Assembly (NCBI RefSeq): GCF_963921235.1
Contig: NC_086108.1
Span: 29,638,001 to 29,702,000 of the forward strand
Reading direction: 5' to 3'
Origin: Mobula hypostoma
Lineage: Eukaryota
Length of the DNA: 64,000 nt
Position 1 is the stretch's first letter. Each line of letters opens with the position of its first letter. The notes under the pieces are model-generated. The model was given only the letters and a program-made list of their open reading frames with translations. It made no database searches and was not told the DNA's origin. Of the stretch, positions 20,614-49,252 are shown piece after piece. The position numbers were made by a program, and so were the translations under genes.

Positions 20614-21031
20614 AAAATGCAAACACGAGGAAATCTGCAGATGCTGGAATTTCAAGCAACACACATTAAAGTTGCTGGTGAATGCAACAGGCCAGGCAGC
20701 ATCTCTAGGAAGAGGTACAGTCGAATTTTCGGGCTGAGACCCTTCGTCAGGACTGAAAGAGGAGCTAGTAAGAGATTTGAAAGTGGGAGTGGGAGGGGGA
20801 GATCCAAAATGACAGGGGAAGAACTGCCCAGCTCTTGGCTCCATCCCTCCCCCTCCCGTCTTCTCCTATCATTTCGGATCTCCCCTTCCCCCTCCCACTT
20901 TCAAATCTCTTACTAGTTCTTCTTTCAGTTAGTCCTGACGAAGGGTTTCGGCCCGAAACGTCGACTGTACCTCTTCCTAGAGATGCTGCCTGGCCTGCTG
21001 CGTTCACCAGCAACTTTTATGTGTGTTGCTT
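20614..21031. mobile_element. Neptune-type PLE, inverted pair of 3' termini
   Basis: Minus arm with full tail (20614-~20825) and plus arm (~20826-21031) lacking the tail. Imperfect TSD AAATTTATACTTA (20601-20613) / AAATCTGTACTTA (21032-21044). Confidence 0.85.
20931..20966 (+). ncRNA. Minimal type I hammerhead ribozyme motif
   Basis: AGTC-CTGACGA-A-GGGT-TTCG-GCCC-GAAAC-GTC-GACT. Intact core, stem I AGTC/GACT, 4-bp stem II, palindromic ACGT in place of stem III. Confidence 0.75.
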
Positions 21032-21479
21032 AAATCTGTACTTATACACTTTCCCTTATAGCAGGAGGTATTATATTGAGCATTAGCCTTTTATTGGGCA
21101 CCATATCAAATGTCTTCTGCAAATACAAATACACTGCACCTACAATTTCCCCTCTATCATATCTGCTACTTGCATCCTGATTATTCCCTTTTCACAGATG
21201 CTGCCTGCTCTGTTGAGTGTTTCTAGCATTTTCAGTTTTTATTTTATGCTGTTTAGTGGAACTTCATTATTACCCCAAGTGTCTACAGTGATATAATTTG
21301 CTTACATTCAATGCTGTTCTTAGACCACATGATCTGTCTTTGGAAGTAATTTCTGAGAGAAGAAGAAGACTTTCATTTATATGATTTTCATAATATTCTC
21401 ATACCTTGGAAACAACTATTGTTCTGTCAATCTATTTACAGAAAGTTTTTACAATCAGAAGCTAATAATACTTTTTTTA

Positions 21480-21660
21480 ATGTTGGTTGAGAGATCAATA
21501 TTGGGCAGGACATCAGATATAACTCCATGCATTTCTTTAAAATCATGTCAAGAAGTCATTTATGTGTACCAGGGAGAACAGAAAGGACCCCCATTTGGAT
21601 ATTTCATCTGGATGAGTAGTGCTACACTCCTACAGTATTGCACAAGATGTCTGTCTAGTA
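21480..21660 (-). mobile_element. Ancient Deu-domain SINE (SacSINE1/AmnSINE-like) remnant
   Basis: 'tgttggttgagagatcaatattgggcaggacatc...gtgctacactcctacagtattgcac...gtctag' resembles the recalled reverse Deu-domain consensus. A similar remnant lies at ~35945-36320. Confidence 0.55.
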
Positions 21661-22199
21661 AACAAAAGTTCATCATCTATTTTGATCTCTGATGCTTTTT
21701 GTTTTATGCAGCAATATCTATTTCATTCACAAGCTTGTAAAATTTTGTGATAGTATAATATTCATACAATGTTAACAAAATGGCAGATTAACACTGTTGG
21801 ATGTAAGTTCAAGCTCAGTGGAAATTATACAGGGAGAAACATACGATCTCCAGTGGCTCACTGTGTTTAATTCCTCAAACATGAAGTCATCTGAACCTTC
21901 ATAGTTTTCCCTGGCCTTATCCTACATCTGAAACCTCCTTCCCTTCCATCTCTGAGCTTTAAACATTCTTGTTAGTGGACAGAGTTCCCTTGTGTTATCT
22001 TGGTAGTCTTCAGCTGCCTTCTTTTGTTGAACCTGATAAATTCTTGTTCTCCACCGCACTTTTGGTCATGCTCCCAATATGGCAAATCACTTTTTTTTTC
22101 TATTTAGCATTTTATTTGTCCTTCTTTGCTTAAAGATCCATATAAATAGAAATTTTGATGACATGCTTAATTGACCTTGTTGGAGTATGTCCAGTCATC

Positions 22200-22500
22200 T
22201 CTCATAGAGTCACAGAACATGAGCCCACCAAGTCCACGTTGACCATCAAGCACTCATTTACACTCACCCTGTTTTATTCTCACTGCATTCCCAGCAACTC
22301 TTCCCACAATTGCCACCCAATTTACTCACTTACATTCAGGCAAATCACAATGATCAATGATCCTACAATCCCACACATCCTTGGAGTGTGGGAGGAAACC
22401 TGTGCAGGACACAGGACACAGGCAGCATCGGAGATTGGGATCAAACCTGGGTCGGTGGAGCTGTGAGGCAGCAACTTCACTAGCTGCACCCCTCTGCCAA
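22200..22500 (-). mobile_element. HE1/V-SINE-like element
   Basis: 'ggagtgtgggaggaaacc...ggatcaaacctgggtcggtggagctgtgaggcagcaac...ctgcacc'. Confidence 0.6.
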
Positions 22501-22830
22501 CTTAGAAAACCTGAAACGAGAAATGATCCCAAAGTCACAAACCACCAGAAACTTTTCCTAAAGTAACCAGCCACTGACGTTTTTACTTTAACAACAAAGA
22601 CAGTTTCTATGCTGTCATTTCCATTAAAGGCCAAAGCGATAGTTTCAAATTTCAGGGGTTGAATAAGACTGTAATTGGTAAATTTAATAAACTTTGATCA
22701 GTTTGCACTCTTAATATACTGTATTTTTATGTTGCATTAGTTTTACACCAAAGCAGTTTCAATTTTGATGCCGATCACACTATTGAAAGAAATGGCCTGA
22801 CAGCAGTGTAAAAATTATCGTGGCAGCCAA

Positions 22831-22968
22831 GAGTCCTGCCGAAGGGTCTCAGCCCGAAACGTTAGCTGTATTTTTTTTCCATAGATGCTGCCTGGCCTGC
22901 TGAGTTCCTCCAGCATCATGTGTGTATGTTGCTTGGATTTTCAGCATCTGCAGATTATCTCTTGTTTT
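22831..22968 (+). mobile_element. Short PLE terminus starting at the hammerhead motif
   Basis: gAGTC-CTGCCGA-AGGGTCTCAGCCC-GAAAC...agatgctgcctggcctgctgagttcctccagc...ttttcagcatctgcagattatctcttgttt. Confidence 0.75.
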
Positions 22969-23267
22969 TGCATTCTTATTGATTTGACTTCACTTCTGAG
23001 GCGTGTTTCAACTGAGACCATGCATGTGTGATGACTGTGAAGTTAAGCTCAATGTGTGCAATGCATTAAGTGATCAAAAAGTAATGTACTTAATATCACT
23101 GGTTGGACAGAAAGTATAACAGTCGGGAGTTGTCCATTTGTATCTTGTACTGTTTCTCACTAAGGTGGAAAACAAGTTATCTCGTTCTGTACCATTGCTT
23201 TGACAACTCCACACAACCACCAAAAAGTGTGTAAGACACAGCTGAGGTAACTTGCTGTCTGTTCTTC

Positions 23268-23935
23268 TCAAAGTAAATTTATTATCAAAGTACATATATG
23301 TCACCATATAAAACACTGAGATTCATTTTCTTGTGGGCATACTCAATAAATCCATGATAGAATCATAACCATAATAGAGTCAGTGAAAGACCACACCAAG
23401 TTGGGTGTTTAACCACTGTGCATATACAAAAGGAAAAAAAGGAAATACTAATAATAAACAGATAAGCAAAAAATATCGAGAACATGAGATGAAGTGTCCT
23501 TGAAAGTATGTCCATAGGTTGTGTGAACATTTCAATGATGCAGCAAGTGAAGTTGAGTGAAGTTATCTTCTTTGGTTAAAGAGCCTGATGGTTTAGGGGT
23601 AATAACTGCTCCTAAACCTGGTGGGGTGAGTCCTGAGGTACCTGAGGCTTCTTCCTGATGGTAGCTGTGAGAAGAGAGCAAGTCCTGAGTGGTGGGGGAC
23701 CATGATGATGGATGCTGCTTTCCTGCGACAGTATTTCATACAGATGCGCTCAGTAGTGGGGAGGTCTTTAGCAGTGATCAACTCGGCAGTATCCACGACT
23801 TTTAGTAGGATTTTCCATTCAAGGGGATTGGTGTTTCCATACCAGGCTGTGATGTAGCCAGTCAATATACTCTCCACACCTCTCTAGAAGTTCGTCAAAG
23901 TTTTAGATGTCATTCCAAATCTTCACAAACTCTTC
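23268..23935 (-). mobile_element. Rex1/Babar 3' fragment
   Basis: ORF 23593-23877 ESILTGYITAWYGNTN...RFRSSYYP and tail 'aaagtaaatttattatcaaagtac'. Confidence 0.85.
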
Positions 23936-23959
23936 GCATTAAAGTTATGAAGATTTATA

Positions 23960-24865
23960 AGGAAATTACAGTACTGGAGTGCCCAGCTATAAGGAGAGAT
24001 TGGATAGGGTGGGACTTTTTTCCCCCTGGAACATAGGAGACTGAGAAGAGACATAATAGAAGTTTATAAAATCATGAAGCACTCAGTTAAAGTGAATAAC
24101 GGAAGTCTTTTCTTTGGGGTAGGGACAGTCCAAATTACAAAGTGAGGGTGGAAATGTTTATCCGGAACCTAAAGGGCAACTTTTTCACACACAGGAGTCA
24201 AAGTATTTGTAATGCATTGCCGGAGGAAGTGGTAGAGGCTGGTATAATTGAATCTTCTGGAGAGGGTTCCAAGGGGGTTCACAGAAATGATTCCAGGATT
24301 GAACGGCTTGAAATATGAAGAGCATTTGATGGCTCTGGGCCTGTACTCACTGGAATTCAGAAGAGTGAGGGGTGATCACATTGAAACCTATGGAGTGGTG
24401 AAAGGCCTTGATAGGGTGGATGTGGAGAGGATGTTTCCTATGGTGGGAGGGTCTAAGGCCGGAGGACAGCCTCAGAATTGAAGGATGTCCTTTTAGAACA
24501 ATGATGAGGAGGAATTTCTTTAGCCAGAGGATGGTGAATTTGTGGAATTCATTGGTGGCTGTAGAGGCCAAGTATTTACGTATTTTTAAGGAAGAGGCTG
24601 ATAGATTCTCAAATGGTCAGTGCATGAAGGGATACAGGGTGAAGGCAGGAGATTGGGACTGAAAGGAAAAATGGATCAGCCATGATGAAATGGCAGACAA
24701 GATTCGATGGGCCAAATGGCCTAATTCTGCTTCTATATCTTATGGTCTTAGGTCTTATAAATACAATACTTTAAAAACATTTGGATAGGTACATAGAAAT
24801 GGTTTAGGGGGATATGGGTCAAATGCAGGCAAAAGGTCAGCATGGACGAGGGGCCAAAGGGTCTA
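23960..24865 (+). mobile_element. Nested CR1 3' fragments
   Basis: ORFs 24248-24481 and 24408-24662 (LGLYSLEFRRVRGDHIE, RRNFFSQRMVNLWNSL). Tail 'tcttatggtctta'. Confidence 0.75.
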
Positions 24866-25134
24866 ATTTATTCACAGTTCCATGTTGCCCTGCTTATTGG
24901 TTTTCCTGAATATTTCAATAAAGCAAGAGGAAGAGAGACACTTCTGCAACAAAAATCTGCATTCTGGTAACATCTCTAATGCAGAAATATGTACTTATAT
25001 TCTACTTAAAAAAAACAAACCTTGATAAAAGAGCTTCTACCTAACCACTGTCTATATCATTTCTTCCCTTCTTGGGCAAGTTTCAGTCAGGTTTTAGAGC
25101 AAACCACAGCACAGAAACGGCCCTTACCAAGATT

Positions 25135-27841
25135 CACACATCAAAGTTGCTGTGAATGCAGCAGGCCAGGCAGCATCTCTAGGAAGAGGTACAGTCGACA
25201 TTTCAGGCCGAGCCCCTTCGTCAGGACTAACTGAAGAAAGAGCTAGTAAGAGATTTAAAAGTGGGAGGGGGAGGGGGAGATCCGAAAATGATAGGAGAAG
25301 ACAGGAGGGGGAGGGATGGAGCCAAGAGCTGGACAGGTGATTGGCAAAAGGGATATGAGAGGCTCATGGGACAGGAGGCCCAGGGAGAAGGAAAAGGGGG
25401 AGGGGGGGATAAACCCAGAGGATGGGCAAAGGGTATAGTCAGAGGGAGAAAAAGGAGAGTGAGAGAAAAAATGTGTGTATATAAATAACGGATGGGGTAC
25501 GAGGGGGAGGTGGGGCATTAGTGAAAGTTAGAGAAGTCAACGTTCATGCCATCAGGTTGGAGGCTACCCAGATGGAATATAAGGTGTTGTTCCTCCAACC
25601 TGAGTGTGGCTTCATCTTTACAGTAGAGGAGGCCGTGGATAGACATGTCAGAATGGGAATGGGATGTGGAATTAAAATGTGTGGCCACTGGGAGATCCTG
25701 CTTTCTCTGGCGGACAGAGCGTAGGTGTTCAGCAAAACGATCTCCCAGTCTGCGTCGGGTCTCACCAATATATAGAAGGCCACATCGGGAGCACCAGACA
25801 CAGTATACCACCCCAGCCGACTCACAGGTGAAGTGTCGCCTCACCTGGGAGGACTTTCTGGGGCCCTGAATGGTGGTAAGGGAGGAAATGTAAGGGCATG
25901 TGTAGCACTTGTTTCGCTTACAAGGATAAGTGCCGGGAGGGAGATCGGTGGGAAGGGATGGAGGGGATGAATGGACAAGGGAGTCGCGTAGGGAGCGATC
26001 CTTGTGGAAAGCGGCGGGGGGGGGTAGTGAAAGATGTGCTTTGTAGTGGGATCCCGTTGGAGGAGGTGGAAGTTACGGAGAATAATATGTTGGACCCGGA
26101 GGCTGGTGGGGTGGTAGGTGAGGACCAGGGGAACCCTATTCCTAGTGGGGTGGCGGGCGGATGGAGTGAGAGCAGATGTGCGTGAAATGGGTGAGATGCG
26201 TTTGAGAGCAGAGTTGATGGTGGAGGAAGGGAAGCCCCTTCCTTTAAAAAAGGAGGACATCTCCCTCGTCCTGGAATGAAAAGCCTCATCCTGAGAGCAG
26301 ATGCTGCGGAGACAGAGGAATTGGAGAAGGGGACGGCATTTTTGCAAGAGACAGGGTGGGAAGAGGAATAGCCCAGATAGCTGTGAGAGTCAGTAGGCTT
26401 ATAGTAGACATCAGTAGATAAGCTGTCTCCAGAGACAGAGACAGAAAGATCTAGAAAGGGGAGGGATGTGTCAGAAATGGACCAGGTAAACTTGAGGGCA
26501 GGGTGAAAGTTGGAGGCAAAGTTAATAAAGTCAACGAGCTCAGCATGCGTGCAGGAAGCAGCGCAAATGCAGTCGTCGATGTAGCGAAGGAAAAGTGGGG
26601 GACAGATACCAGAATAGGTTTGGAACATAGATTGTTCCACAAAGCCAACAAAAAGGCAGGCATAGCTCGGACCCATGCGGGTGCCCATAGCTACACCTTT
26701 AGTTTGGAGGAAGCAACAAAAAGGCAACGCATCTCCCCCATTTCACGCACATCTGCTCTCACTCCATCCTCCCGCCACCCCACTAGGAATAGGGTTCTCC
26801 TGGTCCTCACCTACCACCCCACCAGCCTCCGAGTCCAACATATTATTCTCCGTAACTTCCGCCATCTCCAATGGGATCCCACCACTAAGCACATCTTTCC
26901 CTCCCCCCCCCACTGCTTTCCGCAAGGATCGCTCCCTATGTGATTCCCTTGTCCATTCATTCCCCCCATCCCTCCCCACTGATCTCCCTCCTGGCACTTA
27001 TCCTTGTAAGCGGAACAAGTGCTACACATGCCCTTACACTTCCTCCCTTACCACCATTCAGGGCCCCAGATTGTCCTTCCAGGTGAGGTGACACTTTACC
27101 TGTAAGTCGGCTGGGGTGATATACTGCATCTGGTGCTCCCAATGTGGCCTTCTATATATTGGCGAGACCCGACGCAGACTGGGAGATCGTTTTGCTGAAC
27201 ACCTACGCTCTGTCCGCCAGAGAAAGCAGGATCTCCCAGTGACCACACATTTTAATTCCACATCCCATTCCCATTCTGACATGTCTATCCACGGCCTCCT
27301 CTACTGTAAAGATGAAGCCACACTCAGGTTGGAGGAACAACACCTTATATTCCGTCTGGGTAGCCTCCAACCTGATGGCATGAACATTGACTTCTCTAAC
27401 TTCCGCTAATGACCCACCTCCCCCTCGTACCCCATCCGTTATTTATATACACACATTCTTTCTCTCACTCTCCTTTTTCTCCCTCTGTCCCTCTGACTAT
27501 ACCCCTTACTCATTCTCTGGGCTTTTCCCCCCCTCCCCTTTTTCCTTCTCCCTGGGCCTCCTGTCCCATGATCCTCTCATACCCCTTTTTGCCAATCACC
27601 TGTCCAGCTCTTGGTTCCTTCCCTCCCCCTCCTGTCTTCTCCTATCATTTTGGATCTCCCCCTCCCCCTCCCACTTTTAAATCTCTTACTAGCTCTTCCT
27701 TCAGTTAGTCCTGACGAAGGGTCTCGGCCTGAAACGTCGACTGTACCTCTTCCTAGAGATGCTGCCTGGCCTGCTGCGTTCACCAGCAACTTTGATGTGT
27801 GTTGCTTGAATTTCCAGCATCTTCAGAATTCCTCGTGTTTG
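25135..27841. mobile_element. Neptune-type PLE inverted dimer (RT and GIY-YIG)
   Basis: Minus arm 25135-26713 (GVAMGTRMGPSYA, FLRYIDD, CKRNKCYTC linker, VVYC..CGLLYIGET) and plus arm 26727-27841 with full tail. Perfect TSD CCTTACCAAGATT at 25122-25134 and 27842-27854. Confidence 0.93.
27707..27742 (+). ncRNA. Minimal hammerhead ribozyme motif in PLE terminus
   Basis: AGTC-CTGACGA-A-GGGTCTCGGCCT-GAAAC-GTC-GACT. Mirror copy on the minus strand at 25193-25228. Confidence 0.72.
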
Positions 27842-28288
27842 CCTTACCAAGATTGTTAGCGACATTAGGCACAACAGGGTTTCAGTTCTAATTCTCCTGG
27901 ATCTAAGTGCTGCTTTTGACACAATTGACCACAATGTTCTCCTAGATCACCTTAACAACTGGGTTGGTCTCTCTGTTAGTGCCCTTAATTGGTTTTGCTC
28001 ATATATCTTGAAGAGAAATTTTTTTGTCTATTGTGGAGACCAAATTCTAAGAGGTAACATATACCTTTTGGTGTTGCTCATGGAAGCTATTCTTGGTTCC
28101 CTATTCCTCTTATACATGCTCCCCCTAGGAGATATCATTCGAGAGCATAAACATGATGTCCACAGTTATGTAGATGACATACAATATACATTTCATTTGA
28201 GTCTGATGATAACACCCTATTTTCTCTGACTTCTAGTATGGCTGCAATAAACACATGGATGAGCAATAATTTCCTAAAACTAAATGAA

Positions 28289-28452
28289 TTCAAATCCCTT
28301 ACTCACTCTTCCTTCAGTTAGTCCTGACGAAGAGTCTCGGCCTGAAACGTCGACTGCGCCTCTTCCTATAGATGCTGCCTGGCCTGCTGCGTTCACCAGC
28401 AACTTTGATGTATGTTGCTTGAATTTCCAGCATCTGCAGAATTCCTGTTGTT
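28289..28452 (+). mobile_element. Short PLE terminus with hammerhead (28320-28355) inserted in L2
   Basis: AGTC-CTGACGA-AGAGTCTCGGCCT-GAAAC-GTC-GACT followed by the family tail ending ...gaattcctgttgttt. Confidence 0.8.
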
Positions 28453-30233
28453 TGAAGATTCTTTGGCTGGTTCAGTAGCCAAAAGAGAAAAACTTTTTGA
28501 TAAACTTGGGAATTTAGCTCCCAGTATAAAATCAGAAATAACTAGTGTGGGTGTTATCTTTGATTTAGATTTGAATTTTAACTCCCACATAAAGAAGGTA
28601 ACTAGAACATTATTTCTTTACTTAAAAAATATTGCATCTCTGTCAGGTATTGATTTTGAAAAACTAATTCATGCCTTTATATCAAATAGACTAGATTACT
28701 GCAACGCACGTTTCACTGGCCTTCCAATGCAATCTGTTGACAAACTTCAACTCATTCAGAACATCACTGCCAGACTTTAACTAAAAGCAGGATAAGGGAA
28801 AATAGCACTCCCATCCTAGCTACTCCACATTGGCTTCCTGTATCTTTTAGAACTGGTTTTAAATTTCTCTTAAACACAAGAAATTCTGAAGATGTTGGAA
28901 ATCCAAAACAACACACACAAAATGCTAGAGAAACTCAACAAGTTTTCATTCTTGTTTTTAAAGCTCTCAATAGGCTGGGACCGGATTACACCATAGAATC
29001 ACTTTCATTTTATAACCCTGAGAGAGCTCTCAGGTGCTCTTCTGCCCATCTCTAAAATTTATAAAGCCTCCCTCAAAAGATAATTGGCAAGTCAGCTTTT
29101 TTGAACTACGCTCCTAAACTGTGGAACTCAGTACCTAAAACTATATGGGATGCAGACTCAGTTGACACTTTTAAATGCCAGCTCAAAACCTATTTATTTA
29201 ATCTTGCTTGTGACTAACATCTTCTTCTCTTTTATTTTCATGCTTGCACTTTATTGTAAAGCACTTTGAACTACATCATTTTCATGTGAAGTGCTCTACA
29301 ATTAAGTTACTGTTATTATTATGTTTCTGAGGCACATCACCTGGAAATACAAAGAAAAAAATCTTCAGGATAAGGAAACTAAAAGAAAAGATCAGTACAA
29401 ATAAGCTAAACTTAACTTATGCAACTGTTCTAAAACCAAATTGCAATGTTAGACGAACAAACCAATATAGGTATTCGCATCTTGTTGGTATGATTTTTTT
29501 CAGTTCATTTCTGGGATTTAGGCATCTTGGCACAGGCAGCATTTATTACCTTCATTTGCCTTTCAAAGGATGGTGTCGAACTTCTTCCTTGCTGTGAAGG
29601 TACTCCCATCGTGTTGACTAGAAATTGGATAATATGGGACCACAATTTTCTGTGTTGTGCAATTCAGATTTAGGGAAAGTTCTGATTCTAACTGAAGTGA
29701 AGTCGAAGTTTCACAAGTTTCATGATTTTCCTTCAGGAATTATTGTGTACATATCATTGTGGAGGCAACTTATGAAGAAACATTACTTAGAATTAATTAA
29801 AGGACGCCCTGCCCATGGACACCTACATCATTAAGACACTCTGTGTAGTCTACTAAGTATGATTGCTCCTGCTAGGTCCATCAATCTCCAACCATGCTCA
29901 ATGATTTGTGGTCCTAAAGTCCTCAAAAATCAATTTCTCAAACCTACCCATCAATAAACGTCTTTCCAACACCACCTCCTATTGATCAATTGTCCACTAA
30001 TAATCAATCTATAGACTTTCTACTTCTCATCTGCAACTATCTCTGACTACCAGTCTCCAGTCCGATCCCGTTCACATTCATGAATTCTTGACACTGGCTC
30101 TTAATTCTCCAACTGTCGACCCATTCCTGACCTTCATTAATCATTAATTTACTTAGCCACAAAGCTCCCCCACTCACCTCTACATCCTGTCTCAGCTGCT
30201 GACAATGCCCAGCATCTTCCCCGATCCCTTCTG

Positions 30234-30896
30234 CTGTACTATGCAAAATACTTAGGCACAGCTAAACATAGCTAGGGTGCCTAAGACTTTTGCACAGTAC
30301 TGTATTTGTCAACGTGGAGCGGAGAGTGAGTTTGTAAATCTGGCAGGAGCAAAGGATGTTGGGAATGGCGAGAATGGAGCACCATATGAAGGGTGTGGAC
30401 CAGGTGGCAAAGAAGGAGTACCAGAGGTTGGGTGGGGGGCTGTGGCATGGGTGCAGACATAACCAGTCCTGAGACACCAGGCTAGGTAATTTGATTCCAA
30501 ACAATGTGTTTATTGGTCATTACAAAATATCTCTCCAGTGCTTCCTGCTCCCTCCCCTCTCGCTTTCTCTTTTCCCAACCAGGATTGCCCTCTCCCTGTC
30601 CCCTTCCCACTCTCAGTTCACGATAGAGACCCATATCAGAATCATGTTTGTCCTTGCTGAAGAGTCTCTAAGTCGAAACGTCGACTGTACTCTTTTCCAT
30701 AGATGCTGCCTGGGCTGCTGAGTTCCTCCAGTATTTTGTGTGCCGTTGCTCAGGTTTATCATCACTCACATATGTCATGATATTTTTTGTGGCAGCAGTA
30801 CAGCGCAATCAATACATAAAACTACTACACTACTGTGCAAAAGTCTTAGGAAACCTGGATAAATATACATATGCCTAAGACTTTTATACAGTACTG
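30234..30896. mobile_element. Composite Tc1/mariner-type MITE bounded by two ~69-bp palindromic mini-elements
   Basis: A CAGTACTGTGCAAAAGTCTTAGGCAC-like repeat occurs four times, forming hairpins at 30234-30302 and 30828-30896. The interior holds a Rex1-type tail and a PLE/hammerhead piece (~30650-30749). Confidence 0.7.
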
Positions 30897-31619: not shown

Positions 31620-33705
31620 TAACATGTTGCACTGATGCGGCAGTCTTGTTGAACTCGTGTTCCTCTGATCTTGAACACCTAACTGTCAAACTCCATCCAT
31701 TCCCTTTACTGGGGAGTTCTCCTCCATAACCCTGTCTGCAGTTTACATACCACCAGCAGACGACAATAACCAACCGCTTGAGATACTGCATGATGCCATC
31801 TTTCAAGTCGTAGTTGGGGACTTCAATCAGACTTGCTTGTCAATTTCCATCAGCATAAAACCTATAGCATCAGATATCCCAACACACCAGACCACTGCTA
31901 TAGTAAGATAAGGAATGCCTACCATTCCATGCCCAGGAAAATCAAATCACTTGGCTGTCCTTTTCCTGCTTGCATACAGGCAGAGACTAAAGAGCAAAGC
32001 TCCAGAGATTGGAACACAAAGAGGTGGTCACAGAAGACAAAGAAACAGCTATGGGATTACTCCGAGTCAATGGACAGAGCCTTGTTCAAGGACTCACCTA
32101 TGGATCTGAATGAATATACCATGTTTGTCATGGTCTTTACTAAAACAGTTGGTGATGAGTGTCTCCCCACAAAATCATTCATGGGCTTCTTACCCATTCA
32201 GAAGCCCTGGATGAACCATGAGATCCACAATCTGCTGAGAGCCAAATCAAAGGCATTCAATTCTGGTGACCAAGAATGTTACAAGAGGTCCAGGTATGAT
32301 CTCCAGAAAGCCACCTCATGGATGAAATGGCAATTCCAGACTAAACTTGAATCAGTGAACATTGCTCGTCCGTTGTGCCTGGGCTTGAATACTATATCCT
32401 CTTATAAAGTTAAAACAAGCTGTGATGAAAAACCAAGCTATCAGAAGATTGATGCTGATGAGAGAGTTAAGAGAGACAAATGGAGAAGTGTTCAAAATGT
32501 TAATGAGATAGGAGAGAGATTAACGAAAAGAGACACAGTTCCGAGTATTGACAGACCGGTTGCTTTGAACCTGAACTGTTTGAAGTTTGATGGACAGGCA
32601 ATACCCCAGCAGGGGGATAAAAGGAACAGGTTCGCTAAGGCACGACACACACCACGAGATCACGAGATAACGAGACCCTGGAAGTGCAGTGTGCCCCCCA
32701 CAAGTTGGCAGGCGTTTGGAGGTCTGGTCGCGGGAACTGACCATAGACGCACAAGGTGAAAAGGTACGATCGGCGGGAACCTGGTGTGTGTGTCCACCCT
32801 TGCCTGGATGCAGGGTTCACAGCGGAAGAACGGTCGTATCCAGAACGGAGGGGTCACAGTCGGTGACCACAGAAGACATTAAAAGGGTTCGCCCGAAAGC
32901 TAACTGCGAAGAACAAAGGTCTGTGTGAATCAGAATTTGCATATTCTCTCTCTCTCTCTCCAACGGCACAACAGCGATTGCTGCAAACCGTACTAAGCTG
33001 AACTGAACTCTGCATCACTTGAGACTGATCATTTTACCCCTAGACTGCGATAGAGCTTGTTAGATTCCTATTACCCTAGTTCTGTGTACATGTGTGTTTG
33101 CTAACCTGTTGCATTTATATCCTTATGATTAGAGTACTGTGTTACTTATTTGTTTAATAAAACTTTCTTAGTTCCAGTAATCCAGACTCCAACTAAGTGG
33201 TCCATTTCTGCTGGTTTGGCAACCCAGTTATGGGGTACGTAACAAAGTGAAAAAAGGCAACAGCAGGGATTTGCTTCCAGATGAGCTCAATGCTTTCTAT
33301 GCTTACTTGCTTACTTTGACCATCAAAACATGGAGGAACCATCATGAAATCCTATATCCCTCAATGATCCAATGATTTCATTCTCTGAGGCTGATGTACA
33401 AGCAGCCTTCAGGAGGGTGAACCCACAGGAAGCATCGAGCCCAGTCCAGGTACCTGGCCAAATGCCTGTCACAAACTGGCTGGAGTGTTCTCTGATATCT
33501 TGAACCTCTTGCTTCAGCCATCTAAGATAGCCACCTGCTTCAATTATACCGTGCCGAAGAAGAGCGTGGAGACCTGCTTCAATGACTATCACCCAGAAAC
33601 ACCTACATCCACAAAGATGAAGTGCTTTGAGAGGTTGGTTATGAAACATATCAACTCCTGTCTGAGAAGTGGCTGAGGTCCAATCCAGTTTGCCTACCAG
33701 AGCAA
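31620..33705 (+). mobile_element. Rex1/Babar (APE and N-terminal RT), interrupted by a solo LTR
   Basis: Motifs [50 protein letters not shown]. Confidence 0.85.
32421..33244 (+). mobile_element. Solo LTR (probably Gypsy-type)
   Basis: TG...CA ends (TGTGATG...CGTAACA). 4-bp TSD AAGC (32417-32420) / AAGT (33245-33248). TATA-like GATAAAA at ~32616 and AATAAA at ~33155. Related to 45218-46077. Confidence 0.85.
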
Positions 33706-35150: not shown

Positions 35151-35174
35151 AATGAGAGGTCCATGAGCCACTCT

Positions 35175-39787: not shown

Positions 39788-40853
39788 CAACGCACATCAA
39801 AGTTGCCCAGGCAGCATCTCTAGGAAGAGGTACAGTCGACGTTTCGGGCCGAGACCCTTCATCAGGACTGACTGAAAGAAGAGCTAGTAAGAGATTTGAA
39901 AGTGGGATGGGGAGGGGGAGGTCCAAAATGACAGGAGAAGACAGGAGGGGGAGGGATGGAGCCAAGAGCTGGACAGTTGATTGGCAAAAGGGATATGAGA
40001 GGATCATGGGACAGGAGGCCTAGGAAGAAAGAAAAGGGGGAGGGGGGAAAACCCAGAGGATGGGCAAGGGCTATAGTGAGAGGGACAGAGGGAGAAAAAG
40101 GAGAGAGAGAAAAAGATTGTATGTATATATATATATATATATATATGGTGCACCCGATGCGGTCTTCTATATATTGGCGAGACCTGACGCAGACTGGGAG
40201 ATCGTTTCACTGAACACCTACGCTCTGTCCGCCAGAGAAAGCAGGATCTCCCAGTGGCCACACATTTTAATTCCACGTCCCATTCCCATTCTGATATGTC
40301 TATCCATGGCCTCCTCTGCTGTAAAGATGAAATCACACTCAGGTTGGAGGAACAACACCTTATATTCTGTCTGGGTAGCCTCCAACCTGATGGCATGAAC
40401 ATTGACTTCTCAAACATCCGTTAATGCCCCACCTCCCCCTCGTACCCCATCCATTATTTATTTATTTATATACACATATTCATTTTCTCTCCTTTTTCTC
40501 CCTCTGTCCCTCTCACTATACCCCTTGCCCATCCTCTGGGCTCCCCCCCCCCTTTTCTTTCTCCCTCGGCGTCCTGTCCCATGATCCTCTCATATCCCCT
40601 TTGCCAATCACCTGTCCAGCTCTTGGCTCCATCCCTCCCCCTCCTGTCTTCTCCTATCATTTCGGATCTCCCCCTCCCCCTCCCACTTTCAAATCTCTTA
40701 CTAGCTCTTCCTTCAGTTATTCCTGACGAAGAGTCTTGGCCTGAAACGTCGGCTGTACCTCTTCCTAGAGATGCTGCCTGGCCTGCTGCATTCACCAGCA
40801 ACTTTTATGTGTGTAGCTTGAAATTCCAGCACCTGCAGAATTCCTCGTGTTTG
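39788..40853. mobile_element. Neptune-type PLE inverted pair
   Basis: Tail-less minus arm 39788-~40140, (TA)n junction, plus arm ~40146-40853 with GIY-YIG remnant and full tail. Perfect TSD TGGAGGATTTACTG at 39774-39787 and 40854-40867. Confidence 0.92.
39834..39869 (-). ncRNA. Minimal hammerhead ribozyme motif (best-preserved copy)
   Basis: Minus strand AGTC-CTGATGA-A-GGGT-CTCG-GCCC-GAAAC-GTC-GACT. Confidence 0.78.
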
Positions 40854-41526
40854 TGGAGGATTTACTGGCAGGCTCGCTCCTGGGCCTAAAGGTGGCTATT
40901 CACAGGTCCAGGCGGCGGAAAGTCGAGGGCTCTGCCAAGGCCGACTGCCTGTCCCTCTTCCGAGGACACTTTTAATGCCCAGCTGTCCTTGGAGAGGGAG
41001 CATGCTGTACGGTGGGGGATTTTGGAAGTGGTGCTCCCCCCCCCCCCCCCGGATTAAGTGTTTTATAGATAGTAGTAATCATATTTTAATTTGAAATTAT
41101 TCAGTTGTGTAAATACACAATATTTGTTTGTGTATTTGATGTGTAAATAAACTGTTATAGTTTTGTAAAAAAATGTGGAGTGGAGCTTGATTGGTCAAAG
41201 GACAATAAGTGCGTAAGTGACTGATGGAGGGGACATAAAAATAAGTTAGTGTAAATGAGAGACTGACACCTCTGGCCAGAGCGACTGAGGACTAAGTGGA
41301 CTGAAGTGACTTTGTGTGCTATGGTATTCTATGACCACAGTGCAAGTGGCTGTCAACATGACTAAGATGATCAATGTTTTGTGGTGGGTTTCTAACGAGT
41401 TGGAGCTGAATATATTTCTGACATCCCAGTATTGTATAAAGAAAATTACTTGCACTAATCAAGGAGATGTAAGAACATTCTATTCTCTCCTGCCAGAAAG
41501 CAAGTGATTTTCTGAAGATTGCATAC

Positions 41527-41839: not shown

Positions 41840-42802
41840 GAACGTTGCATACAGCCCACAGGATAAAGTACCATTGACTGCACATACATTGTGCTGTGTG
41901 TCACATTGGCAAATATGGCCAGTAATAGAAGAGAAGTGGATGGTGTGCAACAAGAGACAATGCTGGTCAGTGCCTGCAGACAGAATGTCTTCATTCTGTG
42001 TTCACCTGCAGTGCAACTTAGTGTTGGCCAAGTTCGAGTTGGCTACAATGCGGCAACCGGGCAAGAAAGGTCACTGACAGCATGATCGTTGACTCGTGAA
42101 TGTCTGACGAAAATTAATGCACCATGTAAAATTAGAAAGAACGGGCCATATTCTTGCACACTGACCAGCCTTGCCACCACTAAGGAACAGCATTTGCCAT
42201 CTTGATGTCCACAGCAATGGTAAGTGTGTGAGGTGAAGTGTTGGACTGTTGAGCATGATTGATGGAGGTTGCCATAGATGTGTGGTGAATTCTGCTCTAT
42301 TTGAGCCTGGTGGTGCAGTTAGTGTGATGTGTCATTTGGAAAAGCATTGACCTTGACTACCCATTATAGACATTGGAGTTCCTGCTATCCTACTGTACAT
42401 TCAAATGCTTGGGCGATCACCACCATTGCTGAGACAATTGTCTTTTGAGAATCCAAGGCATAGAACATTGCTCCTTTCATTTTTTCCCTTCATTAAGGCC
42501 TCCGCTGGTTCCCAAGTACACTTCAGTTCCCACCCTGCTGGCAGCTCTTGCCCCAGCTGTAATGCATCCCCCCTTGAAGAGATATGGACCAACTTCAGTG
42601 CAAGATATTAGATCCCTGCTGATCATTCAGCCAATGTGCCATTAGTGTTCTCTGATTGCTGAAAAGATGCAACAATAATCTGAATTTATATAGCATCTTC
42701 TCACATTAAGATGACTTTGGGTCTTTCAGAAGAATGTTGTCAAATACAATTTGATACTGAGCCACAAACAAGCACTTAGGCAAATGAGCAAACTCTGGAT
42801 TA

Positions 42803-44836
42803 CAAACGCAAACACGAGGAAATCTGCAGATGCCGGAGTTTCAAGCAACACACACAAAAAATGCTGGTGAGCTCAGCAGGCCAGGCAGCATCTCTAGGAA
42901 GAGGTACAGTCGACGTTTCAGGCCGAGACCCTTCGTCAGGACTAACTGAAAGTAGAGATAGGAAGAGATTAGAAAGTGGGAGGGGGAGATCCGAAATGAT
43001 AGGAGAAGATAGGAGGGGGAGGGATGGAGCTAAGAGCTGGAAAGTTGATTGGCAAAAGGGGTATGAGTCTGGAGAAGGGAGGGGTTCATGGGACAGGAGG
43101 CCTAGGGAGAAAGAAAGGGGGAGGGGTGAAGCACAGAGGATGTGCAAGGAGTATAGTGAGAGGGACAGAGGGAGAAAAAGGAGAGAGAGCAAAAAAAATT
43201 AATAATAAATAACGGATGGGGTACAAGGGGGAGGTGGAGCATTAACAGAAGTTAGAGAAGTCAATGTTCATGCCTTCAGGTTGAAGGCTACCCAGAGGGA
43301 ATATAAGGTGTTGTTCCTCCAACCTGTGTGTGGCTTCATCTTGACAGTAAAGGAGTCCATGGATAGACATATCAGAATGGGAATGGGACGTGGAATTAAA
43401 ATGTGTGGCCACTGGGAGATCCTGCTTTCTCTGGCGGACAGAGCGTAGGTGTTCAGTGAAATGGTCTCCCAGTCTGCGTCGGGTCTCGCCAGTATATAGA
43501 AGGCCGCATCGGGAGCACCGGATGCAGTATATCACCCCAGTTGACTCACTGGTGAAGTGTCGCCTCACCTGGAAGGACTGTCTGGGGCCCTGAATGGTGG
43601 TGAGGGAGGAAGTGTAAGGGCATGTGTAGCACTTGTTCCGCTTACACGGATAAGTGCCAGGAGGGAGATCAGTGGGGAGGGATGGGGGCGACGAATGGAC
43701 AAGGGAGTTGTGTAGGGAGCGATCCCTGTGGAAAGCAGAGAGAGGGGTGGAGGGAAAGATGTGCTTAGTGGTGGGATCCCATTTGAGGTGGTGGAAGTCA
43801 CAAAGAATTATATGTTGGACCTGGAAGCTGGTGGGGTGGTAGGTGAGGACCAGGGGAACCCTATTCCTAGTGGGGTGGCGGGAGGATGGAGTGAGAGCAG
43901 ATGTGTGTGAAATGGGAGAGATGCATTTGAGAGCAGAGTTGATGGTGGAGGAAGGAAAGCCCCTTTCTTTAAAAAAGGAGGACATCTCCTTTGTCCTGGA
44001 ATGAAAGGCCTCATCCTGAGAGCAGATGCGGCAGAGACGGAGGAATTGCGAGAAGGGGATGGCATTTTTGCAAGAGACAGGGTGGGAAGAGGAATAGTTC
44101 AGGTAGCTTTGAGAGTCCGTAGGATTATAGTAGACATCAGTAGATAAACTGTCTCCAGAGATAGAGACAGAAAGATCTAGAAAGGGGAGGGAGGTGTCAG
44201 AAATGGACCAGGTAAACTTGACAGCAGGGTGAAAGTTGGAGGCAAAGTTAATGAAGTCAACGAGCTCAGCATGCGTGCAGGAAGCAGCGCCAATGCAGTC
44301 GTCGATGTAGTGAAGGAAAAGTGGGGGATGGATACCAGTATAGGCTTTGAACATGGATTGTTCCACAAAGCCAACAAAAAGGCAGGCATAGCTGGGACCC
44401 ATACGGGTGCCCATGGCTACACCTTCAGTTTGGAGGAAGTGAGAGGAGCCAAAGGAGAAATTATTAAGAGTAAGGACAAATTCCACTAGATGCAGCAGAG
44501 TGATGGTAGAGGGGAGCTGATTAGGTCTGGGATCCAAAAAGAATCGGAGAGCTTTGAGACCTTCCTGGTGGGGGATGGAGGTATATAGGGACTGGACATC
44601 CATGGTGAAAATAAATCAGTGGGGGCCAGGGAACGTAAAATCATTGAAAAACTTCAGAGCGTGAAAAGTGTCACGAACATAGGAAGGGATTGAACAAGGG
44701 GGATAAAACAGTGTCGTCTTATCTCTTACTATCTCTTCTTTCAGTTAGTCCTGACGACGGGTCTCGGCCCGAAATGTCGACTGTACCTCTTCCTGTAGAT
44801 GCTGCCTGGCCTGCTGCGTTCACCAGCATATTCTGT
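42803..44836 (-). mobile_element. Neptune-type PLE with 453-aa open RT-GIY-YIG frame and short inverted terminus
   Basis: ORF 43242-44603 (DVQSLYTSIP, GVAMG, YIDD, CKRNKCYTC, VIYC...YTGET). Full tail at 42803 and tail-less inverted arm ~44720-44836. Perfect TSD AAACTCTGGATTA at 42790-42802 and 44837-44849. Hammerheads at 42908-42943 (-) and 44747-44782 (+). Confidence 0.93.
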
Positions 44837-45217
44837 AAACTCTGGATTAAATGGTAGGTTTTGGAAAGTGTGATATAGGAGGAAAGTGAGTCAGAGAGGT
44901 TCAGAAAGTGAATTGCAGGGGTTTGAAGGCAGAACTCTCAGCTGAAGAGGGAAACGATAATGGAAGAATGTGTATCCGAATGAAATAGAAAGGGGAACAC
45001 TGAAAGCAAGATTGGGAATTATAATGTTGAGACCTTTTGTTGCTTCTTCTCAAAAACAGATTTCCAAAGAGCGAAATTCTGCCAAAAAAAAAACTCAGCA
45101 TTTACTTTCGATGTATAGTACTTGGATCGAAATAATGCATTCACAGACACAACAGGAGCCAATGGGATTCTAAGACATTGCTTGTTGCTTAAACCATCAC
45201 AAATATTTTAGAATATT

Positions 45218-46077
45218 TGTTACGTACCCCGTAACTGGGTTGCCAAACCAGCAGAAATGGATCACTCAGTTGGAGTCTGGATTACTAGAACTAAGAAAGT
45301 TTTATTAAAGAAACAAGCAACACAGTACTCTAATCAAAAGGATAATAAATGCAACAGTTCAGCAATGATAAATACACATATGCACAGAATTAAGATAACA
45401 GGATCAATCAAACTCTATCGTTGTCTAGGGGCAAATGACCAGTTTCAAAGTGACATAAAGTTCAGTTCAATTTAGTTCAGTTTGCAGTAATCGTTGCCGT
45501 GGCGATGGGCAGTGGGGTGGGGAGGAGAGAGAGCAAAACGAATGAATATTCAAAACAGCTTCCACACACAGACCTTCGCAGTCAGCTTTCGGGCGAGCCC
45601 TTTGTGATGTCATCTGAGGTCACCAACCATGACCCCTCCATTTCCAGATACGATCGTTTCCCTGCGCTGAACCTGGCACCGAGGCAAGGGTGGGCACCAG
45701 GTTCCCGCCAATCGTGCCTTTCCACCCTGAGCGTCTACAGCTTGATCCTGCAATCAGCCGTCCAAAAGCTTCCCACCGACTTGTGAGAGGCGCACCGCTT
45801 CCAGGGTCTCGTTACCTCGGGTGTCATGTGTGTTGCCTTAGCGAACCTGTCCCTTTTTATCCCCCTGCTGGGGTATCGCCTGTCCATCACTTCAAACAGT
45901 TCAGGGTTCAAAGGGGGAGCCGATCTTGACAATACCCAGACTGATGTCTCCTTCATTAACATCTCCAAATGCTGCCTCATTGTGTCCCTTATCTCTCCCT
46001 CTCCTGAAGACAGGTGGCAGACCAACTGCTGATCACACAGGACAGCTAACATCTTATCTATGTGTATTCTTGTCACA
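45218..46077 (-). mobile_element. Solo LTR (same family as 32421-33244)
   Basis: TGTTACG...TGTCACA. Perfect 4-bp TSD TATT at 45214-45217 and 46078-46081. Confidence 0.88.
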
Positions 46078-48529
46078 TATTTAAGAAGTGAGTCAACTCA
46101 CTTCAAGATAAATCTGTGAAGGTACATTTAAAACAAAACATTAGTACTGGAAATTCTCATATTTTTGCATAAAGCCATTTGGTTCATCAAGTATCACTCA
46201 CCTATGCATTGGGCTAATTTATAATAGCCAATTAACCTGCTGTTTATAATATCCAATTAATTTGCATGTTTTGGAGGTGTAGGAAGAGACCAAGGTACCC
46301 AAAGAAAATCCATACAGTTACAGGGAAAACAAGCAGATACCACCATGGGTTCAAATTGGCCCAGGTTCAATGTGAAACAGTCACCTTATCTACTACATGA
46401 AGCTGATGTGAGGGTAGTAGTGACTTTGTAAGATTGTAACAAACACGTGAATGCACATTTTATAAGCCTCCCAATTTTTATAGAATTTATCAATAGCAAG
46501 ATCGATGCGATTTGACAACTTTCTCTTGCTCATTCTACATCATCTGAACTATGAAGACGTTTGGAGGAAGAGAACAGTACAAATTACTTCATGCTTTTGG
46601 GTAAACAGTGCAGTAACTCTACTGAATAACATGCCAGTGGATTTTGAAGTGGAACAACTGCATTAAAAGAATATTTGGTTTATTGATTTGCAAATGACAG
46701 TCCATGAACAGTCCATGTTGATGGTATATGAAGTATCTATTTAATAACACAGTTCATAAAATATTTATATGCTTCACAAATTGAAAATAGGTAGTTTAAT
46801 CCTATTGCCTGTGAGAGATTAATAAATTGTAATATGTAATGAATATATAAAGTTATATATTAACAGAAGATGACAAATAATTAAAGCAACTTGATGAAAA
46901 ATTAATATTTCCACAACAGATAACAGTGCACGTGTACCAAGCCAGTGGGCAATAGACGCTTTCACATGCTTTCTGTTTTTTTCTGCATGAAAGATAAAAG
47001 AATGTTAGTTTTACTATTTCTGTATCTAACTGGTCACCCATCAACTTAAGAAGATAACAATTACACAGAAGCAATGTTCCAAAACACTGAGCTTCCTGGC
47101 AGCTCTGTTTCAATTGCTGTTTTAGTATCTCACTATTTTAGGTGAATTTTATTTTTAGATTTAGCTAGTGAGTATTTTCTGCCTTTTTGTCTGTTAGCAA
47201 ATTGTTTACTCATTTTGACTTCCATTTTGTGGTTTACTTAGCCTTACAATGAGAAAATTCATGAGTAGTTTTATAAATTGACTAATATATGGTATTACCC
47301 TAGGATTTTTTGCCTTTCTGTTGTTTAATTTATAATCAGAATCAGATTTAATTACCACCAACCTACATGACATGGAATTTGTTGTTTTGTGGCAGCAGTA
47401 CAGTGCCAAGACAAAAATTACAAAAATAAATAAATCGTGCAAAAAAAATGGAACAAGGTAGCGATCATGGATTTGTGGACTATTCAGAGATCTGATGATG
47501 AGGAGAAGAAACTGTTACTAAATTACTGAATCAGGCTCTTGTACCTCCTCTCTGAAATGTAGGAACAAGAAGAGGGCATGTCCTGGATAGTGAGGTTTCT
47601 TTTGGTGAATAGCCTGGAGATAATATTAAATTAATTTAGATTAAGATGTACAGCAATGCAAAACTTTGCCCTTGGAAAATGTGTTCCTCACTTGCTACGT
47701 TTGCATTAATTTGTTGCTTTTATCTGTTATTGTTGCTAATTGTTTCTGCATTTCCCCAGGGGAAATAATGGTAATGCATTTTGGGTTGAAACTTGCTGAA
47801 AGTGACCCAGTCCTCCTGCTCAGAATCTTTACCCATGATCTATCCACGTTAATGCTTATCTTGTTTGTGTGCAGGGGGCTAAAGTCAGAGGCTTTCTGTC
47901 AATCTCCAGCAGTTGTGAGATGAGGAAGCGCTGCCTAAAATAACCCCGGTAGCTTTTGACAACTAGCTAAGTGGGAGATAGGGTTTTACCAGTTGTAAAA
48001 GCAGTCAGTAATTTTTGATAGGTTTAAAGTGTCGCTAGTAATCAGATCAGTTTTAATAATTAAATTATTGAGTTAATTGAGGCAAATAATGCAAAAATAT
48101 TAAGCAGTTTCAAATCTTTTGAAAAGGAAGGTAACATTGCATAAAGTGCTTATAAATAATTTATATAAAAGAAAATTATTTAAAAATACTTACCTTCCTT
48201 TTTACCGCCAACATGTTTGCTAATCCCTATTGGAATTAATGATACCTTAGATCCTGTGCCAAATCTGCAGAATGCCAGGAGTCCCAGGAAGACTGAGTTT
48301 GGCGTAATAATACATAAACTGAATTCCAGAGGTAGAAATGTTGTTGAAATGGTACTGAGGACGTAGAAGTCATTCCCTGCCTCTCTTCCATACTTTTTAA
48401 CTTACGACGTTTCAAATAGTCAAATGCTGCTGTTTCCCATTAACAACAGCAACAAGCAATCTGCTCATTTTGTCCAAAAAAAGAATGCTTTACCTTTACA
48501 ATTTGATGTGATTTAAATAGATATTAAAG

Positions 48530-49007
48530 TTCATAGTCATAGTCATACTTTATTGATCCCAGGGGGAAATTGGTTTTCGTTACAGTTGCACCATAAATAA
48601 TAAATAGTCATAGAACCATAAATAGTTAAATAGTAATATGTAAATTATGAAATAAGTCCAGGACCAGCCTATTGGCTCAGAGTGTCTGATCCTCCAAGGG
48701 AGGAGTTGTAAAGTTTGATGGCCACAGGCAGGAATGACTTCCTATGACACTCTGTGCTGCATCTTGGAGGAATGAGTCTCTGGCTGAATGTACTCCTGTG
48801 CCCACCCAGTACATTATGTAGTGGATGGGAGACATTGACCAAGATGGCATGCAACTTAGACAGCATCCTCTTTTCAGACACCACCATGAGAGAGTTCAGT
48901 TCCATCCCCACGACATCACTGGCCTTACGAATGAGTTTGTTGATTCTGTTGGTGTCTGCTGCCCCAGCACACAACAGCAAACATGATAGCACTGGCCACC
49001 ACAGACT
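48530..49007 (-). mobile_element. Rex1/Babar-related 3' fragment with (TATGAC)n tail
   Basis: ORF 48669-49028 RINKLIRKASDVVG...HPLH...RKSFLPVAIKLYN. Confidence 0.75.
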
Positions 49008-49116
49008 CAAGGTAAATTTTAATATCAAAGTACATATATGCCATCATAAACAACCCTGAGATTCATTTTCTTGCAGACATTCACAGTAAATGCAAAGAAA
49101 CACAATAGGATCAATG

Positions 49117-49252
49117 TTAGTCCTGACGAAGGGTCTCGGCCTGAAACGTCAACTGCACCTCTTCCTACAGATGCTGCTTGGCCTGCTGCGTTCACCAGCA
49201 ACTTTGATGTATGTTGCTTGAATTTCCAGCATCTGCAGAATTCCTGTTGTTT
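49117..49252 (+). mobile_element. 136-bp PLE mini-insertion consisting of hammerhead plus tail
   Basis: Perfect 15-bp TSD ACAATAGGATCAATG at 49102-49116 and 49253-49267. Hammerhead motif at 49119-49154. Confidence 0.9.

Follow-up and report, generated by a model that had tools for sequence, protein, structure and literature searches.

Minimal hammerhead ribozymes are known from metazoan Penelope-like elements (PLEs), including Neptune elements of fishes, and a single genome can hold thousands of them as solo motifs (Cervera and De la Pena 2014; PMC4209133). The motifs described here, from a 64,000-nucleotide stretch of the Mobula hypostoma genome (the window), share with them the type I form, a stem I of 4-5 bp, a loopless palindromic stem III (15.2-16.2), an unpaired base between positions 9 and 10.1, a location in the pLTR, a predominance of solo copies of truncated elements, and inverted pairs 100-700 bp apart. 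They differ in a stem II of 4 bp (7-8 bp in Schistosoma families), a G-U pair at 10.1-11.1 in the youngest lineage, the core change A6C in another lineage, low sequence variety among lineages, and copy numbers far above the 4,000 of coelacanth and the 9,000 of Xenopus.

Like members of the Neptune clade (Craig et al. 2021; PMC8557442), the carrier has a single ORF with DKG, RT, a long CX2-5CxxC linker and GIY-YIG with CCHH residues, and occurs as partial tandems and inverted 5'-truncated copies with a one-sided 30-40 bp tail; it differs in that no clear case of (TA)n targeting was seen. In PAc, a Poseidon element of Anolis carolinensis, the hammerhead cuts only with the element protein, and uncut RNA is the dominant template (Frangieh et al. 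2024; PMC11167929). The present family resembles PAc in its pLTR hammerhead, in its likely use of uncut RNA as template, and in two clusters of 3' ends about 35 nt apart, as expected of two internal RT start sites. PAc, however, has no zinc finger in its linker, and the start of its ORF falls within the hammerhead, whereas here 138 nt separate the predicted cut from the start codon behind it. Non-LTR retrozymes (bioRxiv 10.64898/2026.07.22.740005) also carry a type I hammerhead derived from PLE pLTRs; the window copies, in contrast, are dispersed truncated retrocopies with no tandem array among 18 sites, and only one small tandem (three copies 145 bp apart) was seen outside the window. The A6C change is shared with the Bcep176 phage hammerhead and strongly slows other hammerheads in Mg2+ (PMC3088659, PMC7151607); here it has become fixed in a retrotransposon lineage whose copies number in the tens of thousands. 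No name for the family was found in the papers searched.

Hammerhead motifs in the window

The first-pass annotation had proposed about 18 motif copies in this window, and each of the 18 sites it listed was recovered by a profile of the motif and its flanks, with E values from 3.6e-45 to 0.011. At 14 sites the motif aligned ungapped with at most 7 mismatches in 36 positions. A general descriptor of minimal hammerheads found 7 sites in the window, compared with a mean of 0.02 (maximum 1) in 100 Markov-2 control sequences. The features are as follows:

18048..18240: old fold-back; region 18111-18120 holds the 3' half of the motif only (-)
20620..21035, both strands: fold-back insertion of pLTR pieces 20620-20822 (-) and 20824-21035 (+)
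20719..20754, -: motif whose stem III palindrome is broken; forms the left arm of the 20620..21035 fold-back
20931..20966, +: minimal hammerhead motif, intact, with G10.1-C11.1 and a UUCG loop; cut predicted at 20962/20963; right arm of the fold-back
22832..22967, +: A6C-lineage copy, starts at motif position 1
25135..27841, both strands: inverted pair of 5'-truncated copies, 25135-26712 (-) and 26726-27841 (+); GIY-YIG frame 25518-26072 (-)
25193..25228, -: motif in which C15.2 is replaced by U and stem II has a mismatch
27707..27742, +: motif intact, with G10.1-U11.1; cut predicted at 27738/27739
28289..28455, +: youngest-lineage pLTR end piece of 167 bp (98% to the reference unit); its motif, 28320-28355, carries a mismatch in stem II
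30650..30739, +: A6C-lineage copy, decayed, with indels
39807..40856, both strands: inverted pair whose members, 39807-40127 (-) and 40147-40856 (+), meet across a run of (TA)n
39834..39869, -: intact motif, U7, G10.1-C11.1; predicted cut 39838/39837
40719-40754, +: second motif of the 39807..40856 pair; mismatches in both stems
42809..44716, -: longest window copy, 5'-truncated; keeps the ORF's 3' half together with the 3' UTR, a motif and the tail
42908..42943, -: motif intact, on the ORF strand, some 300 nt 3' of the stop codon; predicted cut 42912/42911
43242..44615, -: open frame of 457 aa that covers the C-terminal portion of the RT (YIDD), the CX4CxxC linker and a GIY-YIG endonuclease bearing the CCHH residues
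44721..44828, +: pLTR piece inverted relative to the 42809..44716 copy, at whose 5' end it lies; motif 44747-44782, C15.2 to U
49116..49252, +: 137-bp insertion starting 3 nt before motif 49119-49154 (mismatch in the cut-site pair); 14-15 bp target duplication
50698..50797, +: old-lineage copy, G12 lost
60561..60596, -: old-lineage copy, GAAA lost
60989..61135, +: old copy, very decayed (E 0.011), GAAA lost
62164..62300, -: old copy that has lost G12 and stem I
62409..62527, -: old copy with damage to the palindrome and the stems

The coordinates and strands of the six copies singled out as best were exact on re-check. Core, ACGT palindrome and both stems are kept in just four of the 18 copies, all of them among these six (20931+, 27707+, 39834-, 42908-); the other two are damaged, 28320 by an A-C mismatch in stem II and 49119 by an A-C mismatch adjoining the cut site. 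The remaining copies, listed as mutated or decayed, do show damage (60989 and 60561 are without GAAA, and 18111 is the 3' half of a motif), but 22832 and 30650 are not simply decayed and belong to the separate A6C lineage. All 18 copies lie in 5'-truncated or fold-back insertions, and no pLTR-ORF-pLTR tandem occurs within the 64-kb window. With 14 of 18 damaged, most window copies are broken leftovers and not working enzymes.

The minimal type I anatomy that had been claimed agrees with the lineage majorities. The CUGANGA core, the GAAA and the NUH triplet are intact in four of five, all four pairs of stem I and of stem II form in all five, and stem III, as described, is the loopless palindrome ACGT in all five. 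An unpaired A stands between A9 and stem II (motif position 12) in 84 of 87 copies. The 10.1-11.1 pair is G-C in four lineages; the youngest has G-U, in 15 of the 18 copies whose other CpG sites are intact, and CpG decay as the source of U11.1 was rejected for this lineage. No compensatory stem changes were found among the five lineages, whose stems are nearly invariant and so give the comparison no power, and the fold therefore rests on likeness to known hammerheads. A check against Rfam Hammerhead_1 had been suggested, but scans against Rfam matched no hammerhead family, either for the window (E up to 1) or for one copy (E up to 10), so that such a search would miss the motif. The motif is without a stem III for these covariance models to match. 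Matches to Rfam miRNA hairpins at 20758-20925 fell below the gathering score, arise from the 20620..21035 fold-back, and were set aside.

The carrier element, its abundance and its lineages

The carrier had been called a Neptune-type PLE, and the motif indeed lies in the pLTR, on the ORF strand. One element (L041) encodes a 1016-aa ORF with RT followed by a C-terminal GIY-YIG, including DKG, YIDD, a CX4CxxC linker and the CCHH endonuclease residues. In a by-eye comparison with the reference rows of Figs S1-S2 of PMC8557442, where the long CX2-5CxxC form excludes Penelope/Poseidon and the Nematis form is short, the ORF resembled the Neptune and not the Nematis rows, with a linker spacer of 23 residues as against about 25 in the two Neptune rows and fewer than 10 in the Nematis rows of Fig. 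S2. The 120 homologues listed included no clade-labelled reference protein. Judged by ORF features and the by-eye linker match, the element matches the Neptune type. Its tandem unit is 3515 nt long; some 300 nt separate the stop codon from the motif, and 170 nt the motif from the start codon that follows. Tandem units with two motifs 3515 nt apart exist. Young elements are near-intact (98-99% identical, with the 1016-aa ORF).

A strict pattern gave 48,565 exact matches genome-wide and none for the control. In a sample of 140 spaced 10-kb pieces (1.4 Mb in total) we counted 142 motifs, against none in the reversed decoy, and the family made up 3-4% of the sampled sequence; extrapolation from this sample gives about 350,000 copies, about 70,000 of them intact. 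The claim of great abundance is upheld. The sample holds one motif per 9.9 kb; with 14-18 motifs per 64 kb, the window is about twofold richer than the sample.

Among the five lineage majorities, 31 of 36 positions are invariant; those that vary are A6, N7, two loop II bases and 11.1. Conservation of the motif relative to its flanks had been set as a test, and across lineages it was 0.94 in the motif, compared with 0.72 on the upstream side and 0.61 immediately downstream; the tail that follows is nearly as conserved as the motif (0.86). Old copies decay neutrally: in old lineages, 36 of 319 core and 305 of 2452 flank positions had changed (p 0.65). Young copies chosen by their flanks carried 5 core changes where 15.9 were expected, a deficit that holds in a random set (1/426 vs 16/669) and is absent in an ORF-selected set (4/477 vs 7/742). 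In contigs from four other runs (four organism codes, four studies), differences present at 10% or more within the motif fell at CpG sites and at the last base, and loose ends gathered at the motif's two edges.

The A6C lineage (lineage C) accounts for 19 of the 142 sampled motifs, or about 47,000 copies by extrapolation, and is autonomous. Random decay was rejected as its origin: A6C gave 493 matches, compared with 373 for G and T together, and about 27 of 30 loci have lineage-specific flanks, with their own RT/EN at about 55-78% identity.

Copy ends, folding and the possible role of cleavage

Among young copies, 16 of 70 start at -12 to +12 relative to the motif and none at 29 to 38. Genome-wide, 487 starts fall at the cut site, with 78, 182, 157 and 201 at neighbouring positions. 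This excess could be the trace of cut RNA; as proof of cleavage the 487 starts were rejected, because fold-backs and deletions with GAC(T) microhomology make up about half of them, and the second arms of fold-backs hold no information on RNA ends. Direct, non-fold-back starts were estimated at 93 (27-204) for the cut site, 52 (15-106) for one base further and 420 (229-612) for position 3. An upstream copy-start control (867 matches) was discarded, as it had picked up lineage substitutions in untruncated copies. Since copy starts are piled at the front edge of the motif, the copied RNA was likely mostly uncut. The 3' ends fall at 134-136 in 24 of 71 copies and at 97-106 in 26 of 71.

The monomer is predicted to fold into an inactive rod with GACG paired to CGUC (minimum free energy), and cutting is predicted only for a pair. 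For 6 of 6 natural copies the double hammerhead was computed to be 1-10 kcal/mol less stable than two monomers; as nearest-neighbour energies disfavour the double fold, a chaperone is likely needed. We consider it probable that the 18 sites are minimal type I hammerhead motifs, 14 of them damaged, in the pLTR of a hugely amplified Neptune-type PLE, with cutting predicted only in pairs and likely with the element protein, and with a template RNA that is likely mostly uncut. Two motifs, brought together within a tandem transcript or within a dimer of RNA and protein, would pair through ACGU and swap stem I strands, and the swapped pair would form two cores cutting after GUC. Selection would act on source elements and not on inserted copies. 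Reverse transcription would begin some 100 or 135 nt behind the start of the motif and would often run off the RNA 5' end at the motif's front edge, leaving many short solo and fold-back copies.

Cleavage might instead be obligatory, with tandem motifs excising a 3.5-kb unit that is ligated into a circle and copied, as modelled in PMC4209133. The core invariant in four of five lineages, the tandem units with motifs 3515 nt apart, the shortage of core changes in flank-chosen young copies, and the local excess of cut-site starts, with a step between positions 32 and 33, are consistent with such a route. We nevertheless regard it as unlikely: the A6C lineage reached its tens of thousands of copies with a change that strongly slows other hammerheads, front-edge starts dominate, the cut-site class consists to about half of fold-backs and microhomology deletions, and the core deficit appears in the random set but not in the ORF-selected one. 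A motif that no longer cuts and is kept as an internal promoter, splice acceptor or protein-binding site is less likely again. A pyrimidine tract and CAG stand exactly at the stem I 5' strand in all lineages, where copy starts also gather, some lineages have a branch-point-like or initiator-like word, and covariation is absent; in Drosophila virilis, a Penelope intron ends at helix I (PMC4209133), and an internal promoter is known (PMC2377424). Yet three of the five variable positions are free in hammerheads and a fourth keeps a wobble pair, the junction expected if the strongest donor-like site upstream, in the region of the endonuclease, were spliced to the motif had 0 genome matches, and no GT..AG joint was present among the joints listed. 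That the host uses the dispersed copies as functional catalytic RNAs seems to us very improbable, despite the extrapolated number of intact motifs, the family's share of the sample, and the same-strand motifs at 27707 and 28320, 613 nt apart: old lineages decay neutrally, most window copies are damaged, and one motif of that pair (28320) has a broken stem II.

Going beyond the pair-cutting reading preferred above, we tentatively suggest that the family may be a natural experiment, in which lineages with a crippled core (A6C) or a weak 10.1-11.1 pair nonetheless reached copy numbers in the tens of thousands. Copies would derive mostly from uncut front-edge RNA, the self-complementarity of stem I in cDNA would prime fold-backs, and the minor class of cut-site starts would be a fossil of cleavage in vivo; the genome, at about 350,000 copies, may bear the largest hammerhead load reported.

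The hammerhead class itself was already known. What this family contributes is scale, with several hundred thousand ribozyme-like motifs of one vertebrate genome missed by Rfam scans, and a test bed for the role of PLE hammerheads, a question left open by PMC8557442 and PMC11167929. It offers near-intact young elements, core variants made by nature, and insertion junctions in the tens of thousands that can reveal the ends of the template RNA. If the natural-experiment reading is true, the ribozyme would be a slow switch, gated by protein, that decides whether an RNA serves as template or as message, and not an obligatory processing step.

Hammerhead motifs and other elements in the window

The 36-base motif, a minimal type I hammerhead in the pseudo-LTR (pLTR) of a Penelope-like element (PLE), is, as judged from sequence, real and correctly identified by the first-pass annotation; it is a predicted ribozyme already known in kind. 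Minimal hammerheads of PLE pLTRs are in print, among them those of fish Neptune elements, as are their solo copies and inverted pairs (PMC4209133). All 18 sites listed in that annotation were recovered by a profile of the motif and its flanks, and 14 could be placed ungapped against one of its six best sites with no more than 7 mismatches. A general descriptor found 7 sites, as compared to a mean of 0.02 in 100 control sequences; an Rfam search returned no hammerhead match. The coordinates of the six best copies were exact, but core, ACGT palindrome, and both stems were intact, when checked site by site, only at 20931(+), 27707(+), 39834(-), and 42908(-); the copies at 28320 and 49119 each had one broken pair. 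The site at 18111 is half a motif, and those at 60561 and 60989 lack GAAA.

All copies in the window are 5'-truncated pieces. Five are inverted pairs, the two motifs of which lie on opposite strands and cannot pair within one transcript. The same-strand motifs at 27707 and 28320 (+), 613 nt apart in separate insertions, the latter with a stem II mismatch, could pair in one transcript. A (TA)n run occupies 40120-40146, where the two arms of an inverted pair meet; it may represent a target site or have arisen by expansion within the 3' UTR of the element.

Other coding matches in the window
58945-60585, minus strand: 546-aa open frame with a full RT domain (Pfam RVT_1, E 5e-34)
31794-32759, plus strand: 321-aa frame without a Pfam match, 77% similar to 45216-45965
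50116-50511, minus strand: weak Pfam matches to ALKBH8_N (E 2.5e-05) and SpvB (E 0.009, below cut-off)

The 546-aa frame resembles a CR1-group LINE; its 3' part recurs at 6981-7765 with 95.5% identity, and this family is thus also young. The 321-aa frame is probably a LINE fragment, since its Atlas look-alikes, unnamed eukaryotic clusters, include some that have exo-endo-phosphatase or RT members. The matches at 50116-50511 most likely reflect the end of a LINE frame plus chance.

Carrier element and its lineages

A 457-aa frame whose stop codon precedes the motif at 42908 by about 300 nt encodes the C-terminal part of an RT together with a CX4CxxC linker and a GIY-YIG domain. When the same genome was searched at the protein level, 242,139 first-look candidates came up, of which 93 were scored, and 20 long-frame loci were retrieved. 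One of these (L041) contains a 1016-aa ORF with DKG, YIDD, linker, and endonuclease; five copies like it are 98-99% identical. In another locus (L048), a partial tandem, the motifs are separated by 3515 nt, and the start codon follows the predicted cut at a distance of 138 nt. The earlier assignment to a Neptune-type PLE is supported by linker length and RT motifs, which in a by-eye comparison resembled the Neptune rows of PMC8557442 (Fig. S1-S2) and were unlike the Nematis and Penelope/Poseidon rows shown there. The best named homologue among the matches listed was from Chiloscyllium punctatum (72%). Another homologue (P0046), a turtle gene model joining two PLE RT-EN units to a PRY/SPRY domain, is probably an annotation artefact.

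Clustering by flanks of the 108 copies (of 183) with an intact upstream flank gave five lineages, with 4 outliers excluded, lineage C (the A6C lineage) limited to its 30 C6 copies, and lineage D comprising only 4-6 copies. After a CpG correction set by hand, lineage majorities agreed at all but 5 of the 36 positions; in the established hammerhead numbering, the variable ones were A6, N7, 11.1, and two bases of loop II. Mean identity across lineages was 0.94 in the motif as compared to 0.72 upstream and 0.61 in the spacer behind it, an excess over the flanks whose absence would, by the criterion of the first-pass annotation, have refuted its reading. No compensatory pairs were observed in the stems among the five lineages. 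In contigs of four other runs, variation of at least 10% within the motif occurred only at CpG sites and the last base, and loose ends clustered at both motif edges.

In old lineages, the core has decayed at about the same rate as the flank (36/319 changes versus 305/2452). Among 99 young copies chosen by flanks, the core carried 5 changes versus 15.9 expected and the stems 23 versus 20.7; this core contrast was present in the random set and absent in the ORF-selected set, and is thus a hint of selection on source elements only.

The core change A6C (493 strict matches, versus 373 for G and T together; 19 of the 142 copies in a 1.4-Mb sample) is a lineage trait, associated with a loop variant and with flanks and RT/EN pieces of its own. 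Of 18 copies of the youngest lineage that retain the other CpG sites, 15 have U at 11.1, in the first pair of stem II. In other hammerheads, A6C slows the reaction strongly when Mg2+ is the cofactor and more mildly when it is Mn2+ (PMC7151607, PMC3088659).

Predicted folding and the copied RNA

As a monomer, the motif is predicted to fold into a rod, with core GACG paired to CGUC, whose stability does not exceed that of shuffled sequences (z -0.65 to -1.55). For all six natural copies tested, a double hammerhead (ACGU-ACGU, swapped stem I strands) could be drawn; its energy exceeded that of two monomers by 1-10 kcal/mol and that of an inactive duplex by more, tertiary contacts not being counted. 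This predicted instability would fit the low activity that such motifs show in vitro (PMC4209133) and the protein-assisted cutting of PAc, the Poseidon element of Anolis carolinensis (PMC11167929). Of nine Xenopus dimers, one cut (10.64898/2026.07.22.740005).

Sixteen of 70 young copies begin within 12 nt of the first base of the motif (14 of them at -2 to +8), and none of the 70 starts at positions 29-38; the 3' ends form two clusters, one at 134-136 and one at 97-106, corresponding to the known tail. Genome-wide, start patterns numbered 841 at position 3 and 78, 487, 182, 157, and 201 at positions 32, 33 (the cut site), 34, 35, and 43, counts for which the upstream control was invalid. Among the loci inspected (the first 20-21 each at positions 3 and 33, 14 each at 32 and 34), many position-33 matches were fold-backs, inverted pairs of pLTR pieces within one insertion, whose first arm stops near the motif front or in loop II and whose arms are joined through GAC(T) microhomology. 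Stem I pairing in the cDNA would prime the second strand and so yield such joins. Direct starts were estimated, with wide intervals, at 420, 11, 93, and 52 for positions 3, 32, 33, and 34; uncut RNA starting at the front edge is thus likely the main template, and a small class of copies may start at the cut site. Three independent fold-backs (L235, L236, L237) share one junction: first arm to motif position 2, one extra A, and second arm from the cut site.

The front edge may be a site of transcription initiation, a splice acceptor, or a stalling point. In all lineages the 0-40 nt upstream (e.g. window 27677-27708) contain a pyrimidine tract and CAG at the stem I 5' strand, and in some also a branch-point-like word, an arrangement that reads as a 3' splice site or initiator; young lineages have a duplicated CAG..AG. 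The one candidate splice junction into the motif that was searched for was absent. For the tail (motif positions 50-135; e.g. window 27756-27841), which is conserved across lineages at a mean identity of 0.86, folding predicts a long hairpin that runs up to the two clusters of 3' ends; this structure is a candidate for protein binding or for the start of reverse transcription.

Abundance in the genome

The great abundance claimed by the first-pass annotation is borne out across the 3.48-Gb genome: one 32-letter pattern had 48,565 exact matches and its reversed control 0. A sample of 140 stretches of 10 kb (1.4 Mb in total), placed at round-number coordinates on large contigs, contained 142 motifs at 10 or fewer mismatches (decoy, 0). 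The core was intact in 56 of these, and 29 kept, besides the core, the palindrome, stem I, and three or more of the four stem II pairs; the family made up 42,883 bp (at least 85% identity) to 53,696 bp of the sample. Extrapolation gives about 350,000 motifs, about 72,000 of them of the stricter class, totals that are rough and probably low, since the same sample predicts 37,000 exact pattern matches versus the true 48,565. Elsewhere in the genome (G000:C2:12242900-12243219), three copies in tandem, 145 bp apart, possibly form a small retrozyme-like array. Published counts are about 4,000 motifs for coelacanth and 9,000 for Xenopus (PMC4209133). The M. hypostoma family was not found in the published papers searched. 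It stands out for its copy number and could serve well as a test system.
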